The position numbers were made by a program, and so were the translations under genes. Shown in pieces: positions 40,787-46,991 of a stretch of 64,000 nt of DNA. How positions within the stretch are numbered: position 1 is the stretch's first letter; the number at the start of each line of letters is the position of its first letter. A model generated the notes under the pieces. It searched no databases, was not told where the DNA came from, and was given only the letters and a program-made list of their open reading frames with translations. The stretch lies in the NCBI GenBank assembly GCA_021775805.1, contig JAJFHD010000011.1, positions 110,887-174,886 of the forward strand, in the 5' to 3' direction. Origin of the DNA: Alphaproteobacteria bacterium. Its GTDB lineage: Bacteria > Pseudomonadota > Alphaproteobacteria > Rhizobiales > JAJFHC01.

Positions 40787-42334
40787 CTACTGGCACTGAT
40801 TGTTGGCCTTCAACGTCCGGTACTGATAACCGCAGACCCGTCTGAGTTTGAGGTCGTTTTGTCTCCAGCACTTGCCGCAACCCGTGCCGACGGTCTTGCT
40901 CGACTGCTTCTTGCGGGGCTTCTGTCTTTTTTTGAGTTTGGTTTTCGCCCGGCTCTTTTGCTTTGTTGTTGGACTGGCCGTCTCAGGCTCGGTGATCCGG
41001 CCGGCGTGCGCCAACACGGCGTTGCGGCTACCGGGGCCCCATTTCCCGTCGATCCGGGCGCGGTATAGCCCCAGCGCCTTGAGGCGCTGCTGGACTGCCT
41101 TGAGGAAATCCGGATCCGTCCGGGTATCCGTCCGGGTCAATGCCTCTATGGCCGGTTCATGGTTCAAAGCGACGGCATCGAGGATATGGATCGATGCCTC
41201 CGTCCAGCTTCGGCCCACACCCAGGCCACGGTAATACAAGGTGCCAAGACGGTACTTCGCCGCCGCGTGGCCTCGATTGGCGGCCTCGCGGTACCAGTGT
41301 GCCGCCTTCAGATAGCTCTGGACGACGTCGTCGCCGATCTCGTAACGGCGGCCCAATGCCGTCATCTGCGATGCCGTCTCCGGCGCCGAACCCTCGGTGA
41401 GGGCGGCGTGCTGCGTTGATTTTGCCGGCTGGTCTACCGGTTCCTCCAGCGCGAAGCTTTCATTGGTGGCCGCCCGCTGTGTCGATTGCGACAACAGGTC
41501 TTCAGAGGTGGTCGGCGCCAGGGCCGCCAATTCCAACTTCTTGGGCTTTTCTGACTTGGCGACCAGCGTTTCCTTACCATTGGTGGCTTCCGGCACGAAA
41601 TAGAAATCGCCGCGCAATGAAGACTCTTCCCAAGGTGTCTGGGCACCACCGGTCACTTCTTCCACGACGACCCGGACCCGCTTGAAAACATGTTCGACTG
41701 CAAGCCCAGGCAGCAGAATCGTCTCGGCCAAAGCTGTCGTAAACGGCGAGTTGCCGCCCCGACCGTCAAACGCGACCTGACCCGGTGCTGCGGAAAACGC
41801 GATCAAGGATCCGGAAACCGCCGTGATCCGGGCGAGGCCACGCCGATCCGAACGGGTTACGCCCTTGAGCGGGTTGTTGCGGCAGGCATCGAGGATGACA
41901 ATGTTCAGCCCGTTGCCTGCAGTTTCCATCTGACGCAATACATCGGAGGCACTGATTGCTTCAAGGTCGAGATCGGCTTCGTCGTCAATCTGTGCCGCCA
42001 GAGGGATGAGGTAGTTGACGCCCTGTGCCTGAATGCCATGACCGGCAAAGTAGAACAGGCCGACCGCATCCTTGCCGGCCCGTCTCAGGGCCCTGCCGAA
42101 TTTCTTGACGGCGCGGCCCATCTCGCGGCGGTCGACGTCGATCGCGGCGACAACTTCAAAACCGACCTCATTCAATGTCGAGGCAATCAAAAGGGCATCA
42201 TTTTTGGGATTGCTCAAACGCGAGATCGACTCGTAGTCCGAGTTGCCGATAACCAGAGCGACGCGCTTCGCGGCATGGGCAATGCTGACCGAAGCAATCA
42301 AAATCGCCAGGCTGAGAATGATCCTCAAGTTCAC
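40787..42334 (-). CDS. Secreted caspase-like (C14) protein with Sel1 repeats and a peptidoglycan-binding-like domain
   Basis: Signal peptide, KRVALVIGNS, YFAGHG, ILDACRNNP, QTPW. Sel1-like LGRRYEIG..AAHWYREAA..G..AKYRLG.LY..G.GV. PG_binding-like VQQRLKALG.Y...IDG.WGP.S..A. GTG start at 42334. Confidence 0.88.
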   Translation of the reverse strand: MNLRIILSLAILIASVSIAHAAKRVALVIGNSDYESISRLSNPKNDALLIASTLNEVGFEVVAAIDVDRREMGRAVKKFGRALRRAGKDAVGLFYFAGHGIQAQGVNYLIPLAAQIDDEADLDLEAISASDVLRQMETAGNGLNIVILDACRNNPLKGVTRSDRRGLARITAVSGSLIAFSAAPGQVAFDGRGGNSPFTTALAETILLPGLAVEHVFKRVRVVVEEVTGGAQTPWEESSLRGDFYFVPEATNGKETLVAKSEKPKKLELAALAPTTSEDLLSQSTQRAATNESFALEEPVDQPAKSTQHAALTEGSAPETASQMTALGRRYEIGDDVVQSYLKAAHWYREAANRGHAAAKYRLGTLYYRGLGVGRSWTEASIHILDAVALNHEPAIEALTRTDTRTDPDFLKAVQQRLKALGLYRARIDGKWGPGSRNAVLAHAGRITEPETASPTTKQKSRAKTKLKKRQKPRKKQSSKTVGTGCGKCWRQNDLKLRRVCGYQYRTLKANNQCQ

Positions 42335-42423
42335 CGTCTTACGCCAAATTTGCCGAGAGCTTTGCGTGCAATTTGTAATCACGTTCACATAATGGCACAT
42401 AATCGATAACAACCAAAATTCGC

Positions 42424-43437
42424 ATGTCGTTTCAACTCGGCATCCTGCAGGCAAATCTGACACACATGTTCGATCGAGCAATCTTCTGGCTGGTAAACGT
42501 TTCTGCTTATCTCCGGCACTTTCGCAACATCATGCTGTTCAGGCGCGCGGTCGGCTATTTCCCCAACGTCGCTGTGCCCAGGCGGTACAATGAAAAAATG
42601 TTGTGGCGGAAGATCTTTGATCATAATCCGCTGTTCGTGACGTTCTCCGACAAACTGGCTACCAAAAAACTCTGGGCTGACCGGCGCCCGGATTTAGCTA
42701 CGGCGGCAGTTCTTTGGACCGGCTGTGACGCCGCGCACATTCCGGGTGATCTGTTCAAGCGGCCCGTGGTGATCAAGGCAAATCACGGCTCCGGTATGAA
42801 CACAGCGATCGACGATTTGCATGACCCCCAATCGCTGCCGGTGGATCGCATCAACAGTTGGCTGGACTGGGACTTTGGGAAACATCAGTTTGAGTGGGCG
42901 TACGAACAGGTCGACAGGCGACTTTTCTTGGAAGAGCTCATTGCTTGTTCGAAGGAATTTCCGGTCATTGATATTTCGATTCACGCCTGCGACGGTCATG
43001 GCGTGTTCGTGGAGGTGATCTGTGCAAACAAGACAGATGACCAACAAAAGGCCTATTTCAAAACGGACGGGACACGTTGGAGGGAAATTGAGAGAAGCAG
43101 TATCGATGGCGATGACGATTCAAGTTTACCCGAGACGTTTTCGATACCCGCAAACTATCGGAAGGCTCTGGATCACGTACGCGATCTGAGTTCCGGTATA
43201 GACTACGCGCGGTTCGATTTTCTGTCGGTTGCGGACCGTCTATTCGGCGGGGAAATCACTGTCTATCCGAATTCCGGCCTGACACCGCACGCTCCGTTTA
43301 TCACGTACAACAAATATCTCACCGAACACTGGGATTTGTTAAAGTCATGGTTTCTGACCCGCCGGCAGCCTTGGATGATTCAAGTCTATGCCAGCGCTTT
43401 GCGCCGGCAGTTGGCTCGGGAAACCGGACGACATTGA
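42424..43437 (+). CDS. TupA-like ATP-grasp amidoligase
   Basis: P..YNEKMLWRK..D......SDK, VIKANHGSG, FLEELI, YARFDFL....FGGEITVYPNSG. Confidence 0.85.
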   Translation: MSFQLGILQANLTHMFDRAIFWLVNVSAYLRHFRNIMLFRRAVGYFPNVAVPRRYNEKMLWRKIFDHNPLFVTFSDKLATKKLWADRRPDLATAAVLWTGCDAAHIPGDLFKRPVVIKANHGSGMNTAIDDLHDPQSLPVDRINSWLDWDFGKHQFEWAYEQVDRRLFLEELIACSKEFPVIDISIHACDGHGVFVEVICANKTDDQQKAYFKTDGTRWREIERSSIDGDDDSSLPETFSIPANYRKALDHVRDLSSGIDYARFDFLSVADRLFGGEITVYPNSGLTPHAPFITYNKYLTEHWDLLKSWFLTRRQPWMIQVYASALRRQLARETGRH

Positions 43438-43472
43438 ACAGGGTGTCAAACGTGGCCGACAGTGATCCATCC

Positions 43473-44636
43473 ATGAGACGCCGACTGGTCATTGGCCAGG
43501 TTTGTCACGGCAGCCTGGGGGGCAGTTCGCGGGTGGCCTGCCGGCTTGCCAACGCCCTTGCCCGGCGGCGCCACCGTGTTCACGTTTTTTCTCGCGAGAT
43601 CCTGCCCTGGGCAATGGGCCCGGATGTCCATCAACATGCCTGCCCGAACATGACGCCCTGTGACCCCGGTTCTCTTTGCCTCGACTGGCCAGAAGGCGAC
43701 CGGACTGCCTTTGCGCACATGCTGACAGTATGGCTGACGCGCGAGCGCTTCGACGTTCTGCATTTTCATTACGTTCACCCGTTTGCCGGAATCGTCCGCC
43801 AGGTTGCGGAAAGCCTGGGCGATCGTGCGCCGGTTCTGGTCGGGACACTCCATGGCACCGATCTTACCCAATGCCTTGACAACACCGCTGAGCTTGCGTT
43901 GCTGAGCCGCGATCTTGCCGCAATCGACGAACTGACGACCGTGTCGGAACACATGCAGACGCTGTCCATGCGACTGATGCGGCAGAATCGGGCTGTCCGC
44001 GTGATGCCGAATTTCATTGAGGACACGTGGCCGCAACCGGTTCGACGATCCACTCAGCTAGCGCCAACCCGTCAGAAACCAGGATTTCTTCATGTCTCGA
44101 ATTTCCGGGCGGTCAAGGATGTCGAGTTGCTGGCAAGGCTGTTTCTGCAGATATATCAGCAGACAGATGCCGAACTCTGGCTTGTGGGGGACGGCCCGGG
44201 CTTGCCGGCGTTAAGGCGGTCGTTCGACCGATCACCCGCCAAGGCGGCCGTTCGTTATCACGGTGCGATTGCGGACCCGGCACCGTATTTCGAACAGGCC
44301 ACGGCTCTGTTGTCGACCAGCCGCCAGGAGAGTTTCGGTCTGGCGGTACTTGAAGCGATGGCAAGCGGGACCGTCGCGGTGGCAACCGCAGTAGGCGGTG
44401 TACCGGAACTGGTCGAGGACGATGTCACGGGCATTCTCTTTCATCCAATCGACCTGGATGTGACGGTTGCACGGATATTATCTCTGCTGGACACGCCGGC
44501 CGAACTGGAAGCCATGCGCGCCCGTGCCTTCCAGCGGACAGAGCGGTTGCGGGAGGCGCAGGTGATTGGCCTCTACGAGGATCTTTACCTGCGAACCGCC
44601 CGAAGCCCGGCCGACCAACTGGGCGCTATAGCCTGA
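43473..44636 (+). CDS. BshA-like GT4 glycosyltransferase (N-acetyl-alpha-D-glucosaminyl L-malate synthase-like)
   Basis: IGQVCHGSLGGS, DVLHFHY..P, TLHGTDLT, HVSNFRAVK, ESFGLAVLEAMASG match BshA signatures. An alternative GTG start lies at 43452. Confidence 0.8.
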   Translation: MRRRLVIGQVCHGSLGGSSRVACRLANALARRRHRVHVFSREILPWAMGPDVHQHACPNMTPCDPGSLCLDWPEGDRTAFAHMLTVWLTRERFDVLHFHYVHPFAGIVRQVAESLGDRAPVLVGTLHGTDLTQCLDNTAELALLSRDLAAIDELTTVSEHMQTLSMRLMRQNRAVRVMPNFIEDTWPQPVRRSTQLAPTRQKPGFLHVSNFRAVKDVELLARLFLQIYQQTDAELWLVGDGPGLPALRRSFDRSPAKAAVRYHGAIADPAPYFEQATALLSTSRQESFGLAVLEAMASGTVAVATAVGGVPELVEDDVTGILFHPIDLDVTVARILSLLDTPAELEAMRARAFQRTERLREAQVIGLYEDLYLRTARSPADQLGAIA

Positions 44637-45769
44637 TGCGCGCCCTGATTGACCTGCAGGCGTCCCGCGCGGGCAGGCTTTTGCTTGAAGACTCGATGAT
44701 CTTTGACGATCCGTCAGCGCTTCTGGCATGCCTTCGAGCACCGCGTCGCGATACCGGCACTCAAGGCGGTCCCAACAACCGGCCTGTGTATGTCCACCAG
44801 CAGGCCTATCTCGACTACAGGTCGTCGGTGGTCGCAAAAATGTTGGCTTTGCGTGGTCTTCATGACCGGTCGATGGATGTACAGGCTGACTTCATCTGGA
44901 TCGATACCGACCGGGCGGGATCGGACAAACTCGGTCTGCGCCTCTATCTGCCTGGACGCCATGGCAAAGTCCCGATACGGTTTGCGCCAAGCGGTTGCGA
45001 CCGGCTTGAGTCCCGGTTTATTGCGCTGGATCCTGCTGTCGTGCGTCGCGCAATGAACCGGATGAAGCAGATGGTCCACCATTTGCCGGGCGCACGAAAG
45101 GAGTTACTTGCACGGTTTGACATATTGCGTCCGGTGCTTGAAACCGAAGGTTCCCTGACGAAACTCAGTCGTGCCCTCTCGGATTTTCTGTTTGATGAGG
45201 TCCTTTCGTTCAAACCCCGGCCGGTGCTGGTCTCCAGTCTGATCGACGCCGGCGTTTTGAATGACGTTCTGGAGAAAATCCTGAACCGGCAGCGGGCGTT
45301 CGTCGATGCCGTCAATATACGCATTCGGCACCTGCAATCGTCTGATATCGCACCTCAGTTAAAACCGCTTCCTGACGATTACCTGCCCCTTTTCATGCCC
45401 TGCCCGGCCGATGGCAGACGTCTGCGCCTGCGTCTGGAAATCGACGGAGCGACAAAACTTGCCTGCGCCACGGACAGCGCCGGGGAACAGCACAGCTTCG
45501 AGTTGGGGCGAACCGATCTTTCACTGCAAACCTTGAGCGGGCAGGTTCAATGGAGTCCCGACATTTCGTTGCCCATGCTTGTCAATTGTCATTACAGTGG
45601 CATGGTGGCTGGAAAAAGCTCCGCACTCTATATGATGGTTTTCGGCCCGGTGATGCAAAGGGTATTGGAACTGGATCCGATACCCGTTTTTGTGCCGTCC
45701 AGTTGGGATGTCTTTCCGGGTCAGTTTGACAGTCTGTTGTGCGCGTATCTGTCCGGCAATCGGATTTAG
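44636..45769 (+). CDS. Uncharacterised protein, putative divergent and shortened BshC-like ligase
   Basis: Coupled to bshA-like and upstream of bshB1-like. VYVHQQAYL......K, FIWIDTD, YLPLF and WSPDISLP..AGKSSALY are weakly colinear with the BshC motifs GQQAGL..GPLY..K, FW.A.EDHD and FS.NV..RP..AGPGE..Y. Confidence 0.5.
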   Translation: MRALIDLQASRAGRLLLEDSMIFDDPSALLACLRAPRRDTGTQGGPNNRPVYVHQQAYLDYRSSVVAKMLALRGLHDRSMDVQADFIWIDTDRAGSDKLGLRLYLPGRHGKVPIRFAPSGCDRLESRFIALDPAVVRRAMNRMKQMVHHLPGARKELLARFDILRPVLETEGSLTKLSRALSDFLFDEVLSFKPRPVLVSSLIDAGVLNDVLEKILNRQRAFVDAVNIRIRHLQSSDIAPQLKPLPDDYLPLFMPCPADGRRLRLRLEIDGATKLACATDSAGEQHSFELGRTDLSLQTLSGQVQWSPDISLPMLVNCHYSGMVAGKSSALYMMVFGPVMQRVLELDPIPVFVPSSWDVFPGQFDSLLCAYLSGNRI

Positions 45770-45804
45770 TCGGGCAACCAACGGAAAGGGACGGCTGGTT
45801 TCAG

Positions 45805-46545
45805 ATGACTATTGACCTTCTGGCATTTTCTCCTCACCCCGACGATGCGGAAATCGGTTGCGGCGGCCTGCTCCTTCTGGCCGCCCGGCAAGGCCTGAGC
45901 ACCGCAATCGTCGATCTGAGCGAGGGGGAAAAGGCAACGCTGGGGACACCGGCCGTCCGCCGTCGGGAGAAGATGGCGGCCGGAGAAATGCTCGGTCTGA
46001 CGGCACGGCGTGGGCTCGAACTGCCCGACACCCAAATCGGACTCGATCCAAATCACGAAATCGACGTCGTCGCCTGCCTGCGGGAATTGCGGCCACGGAT
46101 GGTTCTTGCGCCGAATTTTGAAGATCGTCATCCCGATCATGAGGCAGCGGCGCGCCTGATCAAACGGGCGGCATTCTTTTCCGGCGTTGCAAGTGTTGGT
46201 ACCGGCGCGCCGCACCGGATTGAACGAATGCTCCACTACTGCGTTCACAGTCCCTTCACGCCCAGCCTCGTGTTTGACGTGTCCAGTGTCTGGCCTGAAT
46301 ACACGAAGGCCGTGGAAGCCTACGAGAGCCAGTTCTGTCAACTTGGCGAGAAGGACGACGAAGCCACGCCTCTGAGCAATGGAGATTTCCTGAAAACCCT
46401 TGAGGCGCGGGGCAGGCATTATGGCGCCATGATCAACACAGAGTTCGGCGAGCCCTACTATTCTTCGTCGCCGCTATCGCTCGACTCGCCTGCCGCTTTG
46501 TTTCCATCAGAAAAATCAAGAACAGCGTACGGATCGTTTTCCTGA
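45805..46545 (+). CDS. BshB1-like PIG-L/LmbE family N-acetylglucosaminide deacetylase
   Basis: DLLAFSPHPDDAEIGCGG, VDLSEGE..T.GT...RRRE, DRHPDH, AYESQF, EARGRHYG, FGEP. Confidence 0.85.
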   Translation: MTIDLLAFSPHPDDAEIGCGGLLLLAARQGLSTAIVDLSEGEKATLGTPAVRRREKMAAGEMLGLTARRGLELPDTQIGLDPNHEIDVVACLRELRPRMVLAPNFEDRHPDHEAAARLIKRAAFFSGVASVGTGAPHRIERMLHYCVHSPFTPSLVFDVSSVWPEYTKAVEAYESQFCQLGEKDDEATPLSNGDFLKTLEARGRHYGAMINTEFGEPYYSSSPLSLDSPAALFPSEKSRTAYGSFS

Positions 46546-46754: not shown

Positions 46755-46991
46755 TTGAAAGTTTCAGAGATTCCCAAGACCAAGGGCGCAAAGGTCATGA
46801 CCGTGTCACCCGACGACAGCATTGCCGATGTGGCAAGGACGATGACCCAGCGGCGAATTCGGCACCTACCTGTGCAATACGGCGCGAAGCTTGTGGGTAT
46901 CATCAGTGTCGGCGATGTGGTCAAGCATCGCCTCGATGAGTTGCCGCTGGAAGCAAATGTCCTGCGCGACTATGCGGTTGGCAGTCATTGA
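46755..46991 (+). CDS. Single-CBS-domain protein, apparently an internally deleted CBS pair (possible pseudogene)
   Basis: 78 aa, TTG start. The first-repeat N-terminus (VSEI.KTKG.KV.TVSPDDSI) runs directly into the second-repeat core (MT.RRIRHLPV...LVGIISVGDVVKHRLDEL..E...LRDY). Confidence 0.6.
   Translation: MKVSEIPKTKGAKVMTVSPDDSIADVARTMTQRRIRHLPVQYGAKLVGIISVGDVVKHRLDELPLEANVLRDYAVGSH

Follow-up and report, generated by a model that had tools for sequence, protein, structure and literature searches.

A stretch of 64,000 nucleotides from an alphaproteobacterial genome (Alphaproteobacteria bacterium, Rhizobiales; assembly GCA_021775805.1, contig JAJFHD010000011.1, positions 110,887 to 174,886; hereafter the window, with positions counted from its first letter) raises the question of what an uncharacterized protein does between enzymes resembling BshA and BshB1 of bacillithiol synthesis. 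The gene in question, here called X, occupies positions 44636..45769 of the forward strand and encodes 377 amino acids. Bacillithiol is a protective sugar-cysteine thiol, and BshC, its last enzyme, catalyzes the one step of the pathway whose reaction is undefined: according to the part of PMC5790435 consulted, it was not reconstituted in vitro, and the activated cysteine donor is not known. A first-pass annotation, made from the letters of the window, had suggested that X may be a truncated BshC with a rewired active site. Our analysis leads to a related answer: X is probably distantly homologous to BshC, comprises the catalytic domain alone (Rossmann-like, as in class I aminoacyl-tRNA synthetases), and performs the third step encoded by a compact bacillithiol-type operon.

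X is a real gene, and its family is small but solid. The open reading frame (ORF) extends from an ATG at 44636 to a TAG at 45767–45769, and the segments singled out by the early reader are present and colinear, namely VYVHQQAYLDYRSSVVAK (residues 51–68), DFIWIDTDR (85–93), YLPLF (249–253), WSPDISLPML (306–315), AGKSSALYM (325–333), and PIPVFVP (348–354), beyond which 23 residues form the C terminus. A word-index search returned 52 proteins including the query at E ≤ 0.001, mostly of 350–393 amino acids and aligned end to end; the best homologue is full-length, with 66% identity (E 2.5e-153). The family profile, run with HMMER against 1.84 billion protein representatives, found 167 proteins at E ≤ 0.001, 145 at E ≤ 1e-10, and 98 at E ≤ 1e-30. 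All homologues with a source name are labelled "hypothetical protein." Among 43 aligned members, 13 columns are invariant (Q56, D60, D90, D92, R93, S200, N227, P251, G322, V324, G326, S328, Y332), position 327 is basic (K or R) in 42/43, and the segments listed above coincide with invariant or nearly invariant columns (Q55, Q56, D60, K68, W88, D90, D92, R93, S307, D309, P313, G326, S328, S329, Y332, P350, P354). Cys256 is present in 31/43 members, and a C-x-C pair at about positions 280–282 in 21/43, the non-alphaproteobacterial half of the family, the pair being absent from X of the window; these cysteines may form a zinc site in a beta-hairpin subdomain. X was not found in plasmids by our search. 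As judged from sequence and gene order, these proteins constitute a previously unnamed family that is short, BshC-like, and embedded in bshA-bshB1 operons.

The predicted structure connects this family with BshC. The AlphaFold2 model of X, built from the 43-sequence alignment without templates, has a mean predicted local distance difference test score (pLDDT) of 93.8 and a predicted template modelling score (pTM) of 0.92. In a Foldseek search of the PDB, B. subtilis BshC (4WBD) was the top match (E 6.4e-12, template modelling score 0.65 over the query), followed by class I lysyl-tRNA synthetase (LysRS; 1IRX, E 3e-9), with all others at E > 0.007. The same order was obtained with VIA-align, where 4WBD again ranked first (Z 28.7, root-mean-square deviation 3.0 Å, 349/377 residues), before 1IRX (Z 20.5, 3.3 Å, 270 residues), and both MshC (3C8Z, Z 11.3) and cysteinyl-tRNA synthetase (CysRS, Z 11.2) remained far below BshC. 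We looked for the outcome that would speak against a BshC fold, i.e., a model lacking a Rossmann-type core superposable on BshC, and found instead that such a core is there and superposes on the B. subtilis protein, as the first-pass annotation had proposed. At the level of single sequences and ordinary profiles, phmmer and hmmsearch with X, the family alignment, and a wider alignment gave chance matches only among PDB sequences, with no BshC and no synthetase above chance. In the ESM Atlas, clusters bearing PF10079 appeared at 0.85–0.88 only, under the trust level, and were treated as a lead and not as evidence.

For profile-profile comparison, a BshC reference set was drawn from metagenome contigs by means of a back-translated W.AGEDHD pattern, which yielded 38 complete ORFs of 537–608 amino acids with the motif in frame. 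All 38 carry both PF10079 and PF24850; W130 and A132–D137 are invariant in this set because it was picked by the pattern. The consensus of the set (GGQQAGLxTGPLYTIxK, FWIAGEDHD, RFSNNVVTRPLMQE, GGPGEIAYW, MPxxxPR) agrees with the one that the early reader had given, with W.AGEDHD being the selection pattern. The X family aligned with the 38 BshC proteins in hhalign with a probability of 95.3% (E 2.3e-8, 298 columns), and further runs gave 96.1% in local and 97.8% (E 4.7e-12) in global mode, the motifs pairing in the way proposed beforehand. Thus, [H/G]QQ.Y.DY..SV..K of X (HQQ..K in short form) is aligned with GGQQAGL.GPLY.I.K of BshC, FIWIDTD with F-WIAGEDHD, WSPDV.LP with FSNNVVTRP, SG.VAG[K/R]SSALY with LAFVGGPGEIAYW (GPGEIAY), and P.P.LVP with MP...PR. 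Together, the model and the profile alignments support distant homology between X and BshC.

Among the 42 columns conserved in BshC at ≥ 90%, 15 have the same residue in X (Q92, Q93, K106, F129, W130, D135, D137, L285, R295, S333, V336, G355, Y361, P377, P381), and the residues common to both families (QQ..K, DxD, R, S, G..Y) are invariant in X. Another 18 columns are altered, e.g., G91 to H or G, G95 and G99 to Y, H136 to T, E140 to G, N335 to D, R339 to P, E358 to S, and R382 to variable residues; three (A132, G133, E134) fall in a gap, and six lie outside the alignment, five of them in the coiled-coil domain. As regards a rewired active site, E134, H136, and E358 of the EDHD and GPGE motifs are not retained, and the term describes differences in conserved polar residues only, not necessarily in catalytic ones.

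The genomic context is that of a bacillithiol-type operon. In the window, four co-directional genes on the forward strand encode, in this order, a TupA-like ATP-grasp amidoligase, a BshA-like glycosyltransferase of the GT4 type, X, and the deacetylase BshB1. The ATP-grasp gene (42424..43437; PF14305, E 3.6e-11), which is the first operon gene in the clade of the window, has 245 homologues, some of them source-named "ATP-grasp fold amidoligase." The BshA-like gene (43347..44636) has GT4 Pfam domains and BshA (TIGR03999) as its best NCBIfam match; its true start is probably near 43473, since the family match starts at residue 49. Its TGA stop shares one base with the ATG of X (TGATG), an overlap that suggests translational coupling and counts in favor of a role of X in the pathway. 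BshB1 (45739..46545; TIGR04001, 238.5 bits with a cut-off of 182.5; PIG-L, PF02585) likely starts at the ATG at 45805, 35 bases past the stop of X. A small downstream ORF with a single CBS domain (46755..46991, forward strand; PF00571, E 1.4e-12), whose frame is closed upstream, is an uncertain member of the operon. Completeness of the genome is 98.9% and contamination 7.9%, and canonical BshC (TIGR03998, PF10079) was not found in it.

This arrangement recurs in distant lineages. A scan with one genome per species gave 26 loci, one per carrier genome, X being present in all of them by selection. The carriers are labelled as Alphaproteobacteria, Chloroflexota (Anaerolineales), Actinomycetes, Solirubrobacterales, Syntrophobacteria, and others; the labels "Bacteroidota" (genome G070, locus L011) and "Zixibacteriota" (G072, L013) are doubtful, as both draw one phylum sample, and G070 belongs to the same order as the Anaerolineales chromosome G084. 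Counted by tblastn with the proteins of the window, several loci being cut by contig ends, a BshA-like gene is present at 24/26 loci (all except L015 and L025) and BshB1 at 20/26; in G070, BshB1 lies on the same contig just beyond the fetched locus. X is directly flanked by both at 13 loci, and an ATP-grasp gene of the window type is found upstream of the BshA-like gene at five (L002–L006). The linked glycosyltransferase exceeds the BshA equivalog cut-off in 11 of the 15 cases tested, three proteobacterial ones scoring 198–257 bits and the ORF picked in L023 giving nothing, and the linked BshB1 exceeds its cut-off in 10/12. None of the 26 carrier genomes gave a canonical BshC (TIGR03998) above the cut-off, and there was one chance match of 15.7 bits. 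Among 121 genomes from the order of G070, X occurs in two, and BshB1 above the cut-off in exactly these two, with weaker PIG-L paralogues in 91; the positives are few, and the sample is centered on a known carrier. Like X, BshC is genomically linked to bshA and bshB1, and bshC was first identified by such co-occurrence and co-localization with bshA and bshB, as described in the part of PMC5790435 consulted. By the same partial source, B. subtilis bshC is located elsewhere, unlike X, which lies inside the bshA-bshB1 operon.

Seven carriers (G061–G065, G068, and G076) contain gshB above the cut-off, and these are exactly the genomes with an ATP-grasp gene in the cluster. In the gshB-bearing loci L002, L005, and L009 and in the window, the BshA-like protein scores under the cut-off (198–209 bits in the clade of the window). 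At two loci (L009:7955-9073 and L017:7922-9046), an ORF of 372–374 amino acids directly follows BshB1, with 58% identity between the copies; it has no Pfam match, shows weak matches to ATP-grasp enzymes among PDB sequences (biotin carboxylase, E 0.012), and is unrelated in sequence to the TupA-like protein of the window. The genome with L017, a "Kuenenia" assembly (G076), has a gshB of proteobacterial type and a glutathione S-transferase gene beside the cluster, and its label is doubtful.

Based on these data, a three-step scheme can be proposed. The BshA-like GT4 enzyme would join N-acetylglucosamine to malate or a similar acid, BshB1 would take off the acetyl group to give glucosaminyl-malate (GlcN-malate), and X would attach an amino acid, most likely cysteine, at the glucosamine amine that is thereby exposed. 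Homology and fold, the loss of the coiled coil, the conserved operon, and the failure to find canonical BshC in the carriers are observations; the substrate and reaction of X are predictions. The G-[K/R]-S-S loop of X follows the last strand of the core (E322–324 of the model), opposite G-P-G-E of BshC, and its topology would place it at the KMSKS position of class I synthetases, so that it is a reasonable guess that X uses ATP to activate the amino acid as an adenylate.

X can be compared with its closest known systems. With BshC (YllA; 4WBD, PF10079 and PF24850, TIGR03998), the putative cysteine-adding enzyme, which bacillithiol formation requires and whose loss makes GlcN-malate build up, X shares the Rossmann-like core and the 15 conserved residues, including QQ, K, DxD, R, S, G..Y, and P..P; sequence identity, in contrast, is only about 11–14%, and X has neither the coiled-coil dimerization domain nor a match to the BshC family models. 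Class I LysRS, the second-best structural match, is 10–12% identical, and X lacks its anticodon-binding domain; at the sites of the HIGH and KMSKS motifs, after the first and last core strands as placed by the order of secondary-structure elements, X has [H/G]QQ and G[K/R]SS, neither of them canonical. MshC is a CysRS paralogue that works via a cysteinyl-adenylate. As the cysteine:GlcN-Ins (glucosaminyl-inositol) ligase of mycothiol synthesis, it performs the analogous step, the addition of cysteine to a glucosaminide, and has the same superfold as X, but the structural match of MshC and CysRS to X is much weaker than that of BshC or class I LysRS, and no sequence match was seen. A further relative is a second uncharacterized subfamily of about 416–495 amino acids, here termed A3 after its alignment (P0150, P0156, P0159, P0161, P0168, P0170, P0181, and P0188), which is related to X (E 1e-12 to 5e-25) and, less strongly, shows kinship with BshC (hhalign 85%, E 5.9e-6). 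It shares with X the motifs GQQ..DY..K and G-[K/R]-[S/G]-S..Y but has extra N- and C-terminal segments and reads DYD.FGSD where X has DTDRAGSD. A profile search for this subfamily gave 34 members, none with a Pfam domain. A word-index search started from it did not reach BshC, and it was not found in 300 genomes from the phylum of the window in a search run without a positive control.

Several observations weigh against the assignment of X to a bacillithiol-type pathway. X has no match in Pfam or NCBIfam, PF10079 and TIGR03998 included, and the same holds for all 43 members scanned singly (Pfam to E 10); a PF10079 search of the window's genome at E ≤ 10 also gave nothing. The invariant charged or polar BshC residues E134, H136, E140, R339, E358, and R382 are not retained, and the BshA-like glycosyltransferase of the window, with 204.4 bits, falls under the equivalog cut-off of 273.7. 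The genome has two full-length gshB loci above the cut-off (C52:51840-52763 and C27:1819-2742), one of which, given the contamination, may stem from another organism. BrxA/B and YtxJ were not found in it, nor was BrxA/B in any of the 26 carrier genomes, a marker for which, of the control genomes, only that of B. subtilis was positive. The X cluster was not found in 60 relatives from the same family and order, and X is rare in Chloroflexota samples (1/201 and 2/121); with such a rare and patchy distribution, the cluster would be an accessory trait rather than the source of the standard thiol of a lineage. All 26 carrier records are metagenome-assembled genomes. Lastly, even for BshC itself no reconstitution of the reaction has been achieved, according to the part of PMC5790435 consulted.

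A trivial explanation, that X is what is left of a decaying full-length bshC, or else a chance ORF, is scarcely credible. It could appeal to the length of X, about 165 residues short of BshC, to the lack of a family-model match, and to the X homologue on the complete Anaerolineales chromosome G084 (719393-720532, i.e., locus L025), which contains one in-frame TGA and one in-frame TAG and is either a pseudogene or affected by assembly errors. It is contradicted by conservation over the full length at 350–393 amino acids in dozens of genomes from several phyla, by the 13 invariant columns, by the confident model, and by the spacing of BshB1, which leaves no room for remains of a coiled coil. In a BshC of 544 amino acids, PF10079 covers residues 1–383 and PF24850 residues 385–544; X stops at the end of the first domain, and PF24850 was not found anywhere in the genome of the window at E ≤ 1. 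Hence, the loss of the coiled coil is a trait of the family and not a local truncation. X spans the Rossmann-like domain only; the first-pass annotation was right that the coiled coil is lacking, and its word "truncated" stands as a description of the architecture of a whole conserved family but not in the sense of a broken gene. According to the part of PMC5790435 consulted, BshC dimerizes via its coiled coil, and X should accordingly not dimerize in this way.

Two other explanations accept X as a functional protein and differ on its reaction. The loss of six invariant charged or polar residues means that the chemistry may differ, and it is conceivable, if unlikely, that X is a true BshC homologue using another amino acid, acyl group, or aminosugar acceptor, its product being not bacillithiol and perhaps not even a thiol. 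Such a change would fit the 18 altered and three gapped columns, the invariants that X has of its own (D60, R93, E125, R127, S200, N227, S328), the low-scoring glycosyltransferase and added ATP-grasp amidoligase in the clade of the window, and the coincidence of gshB with a cluster ATP-grasp gene in seven of the 26 carriers. However, in most carrier loci both neighbors are BshA and BshB1 equivalogs above the curated cut-offs, the TIGR03998 search of the carrier genomes revealed no other candidate for cysteine addition, and X keeps the residues shared with BshC invariant. Far less probable is a division of labor in the clade of the window in which the ATP-grasp amidoligase forms the glucosamine amide and X is an accessory protein without ligase activity, serving substrate delivery or regulation. 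ATP-grasp enzymes typically join carboxylates to amines, the gene opens the operon in the window and at L002–L006, and the different, weakly ATP-grasp-like ORF follows BshB1 at L009 and L017. Moreover, BshC never showed ligase activity in vitro, as reported in the part of PMC5790435 consulted. On the other hand, no such gene was seen at the remaining 19/26 loci by tblastn with the ATP-grasp protein of the window and Pfam scans of some neighbors, and the invariant pocket-type residues that X retains across phyla argue for catalysis by X itself and against an accessory role.

The assignment of X as the BshC-like third enzyme of the operon also admits variants. The divergent BshA-like enzyme and the added ATP-grasp gene in the clade of the window suggest, speculatively, that this clade may produce bacillithiol in a modified form, and in hosts with gshB, the genome of the window among them, this modified compound may be made alongside glutathione. 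A bolder version, which we offer as a possibility on the doubtful side, is that X is a self-sufficient, monomeric, ATP-dependent ligase with which Chloroflexota and further uncultured bacteria would finish a thiol of the bacillithiol type, while in glutathione-making Alphaproteobacteria the ATP-grasp enzyme and the divergent BshA would give a new, further-acylated thiol. X could then be the form that lets the BshC reaction work in vitro, because it has no coiled coil and carries a basic residue in the KMSKS-like loop.

Some neighboring genes deserve mention. In the window, a gene on the reverse strand (40787-42481), pointing away from the operon, encodes a protein of 564 amino acids in which a caspase-like peptidase C14 domain is combined with a Sel1 repeat and a domain for peptidoglycan binding. 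At ten loci, X or BshA stands beside a gene for a protein of approximately 1000–1060 amino acids with an N-terminal PIG-L deacetylase domain, a NEW3/NPCBM-associated domain (undetected in L023), and a C-terminal cyclic-nucleotide-binding domain (L010:1530-4634, L011:7237-10272, L012:6521-9568, L013:3759-6761, L016:1677-4715, L019:1483-4530, L021:1112-4168, L022:2829-5882, L023:1152-4337, L026:7272-10319), which is split or partial in L008, L014, and L027; it may be a cyclic-nucleotide-regulated amidase of the X pathway. In loci of the Chloroflexota type, X is adjoined by a fusion of 1100–1330 amino acids that combines FHA, indoleamine-2,3-dioxygenase-like, FAD/NAD reductase, and cytochrome b5 domains (L011:2167-5985, L012:1159-5145, L015:1970-5896, L025:1850-5167, L026:1985-5881; split in L008:2162-5988), with partial copies at the edges of L016, L021, and L022. 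This fusion is preceded by a CBS protein of 153 amino acids in L011, as confirmed by Pfam, and by equally long ORFs at the corresponding place in L012 and L015. Finally, at locus L020, from an assembly labelled as Woesearchaeota, X is accompanied by a BshA equivalog of 307 bits, by two PIG-L proteins that stay under the cut-off for BshB1, and by a protein with an adenylate/guanylate cyclase domain. Searches for BshC itself in the phylum of G070 and G072 gave 0/41 and 0/61 genomes in overlapping samples, and a scan of viral contigs for W.AGEDHD-type motifs gave four loci, none with an ORF of BshC size.

Surveys of bacillithiol distribution, as far as the consulted parts describe them, demanded BLAST E ≤ 1e-20 and a length similar to that of BshC (PMC6282198, PMC12719100). 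With such thresholds X would be missed, and the present genomes with bshA and bshB1 would be scored as lacking the pathway. Chloroflexota and other uncultured carriers of X are not listed as bacillithiol producers in the consulted parts of these surveys. Likewise, we found no description in the literature, part of it consulted in extracts, of a BshC family without the coiled coil or of bacillithiol in Chloroflexi, Anaerolineae, or anammox bacteria, while supplements such as Supplementary Dataset 1 of PMC12719100 could list such genomes.

The family would be of clear interest to the field of low-molecular-weight thiols. X is predicted to be a natural minimal version of BshC, reduced to the catalytic domain and with another set of conserved polar residues; it reveals the residues that the two lineages have in common and offers a second, simpler protein for assay and crystallization. 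X may also be the means by which thiols of the bacillithiol type are made in Chloroflexota and in some Alphaproteobacteria.

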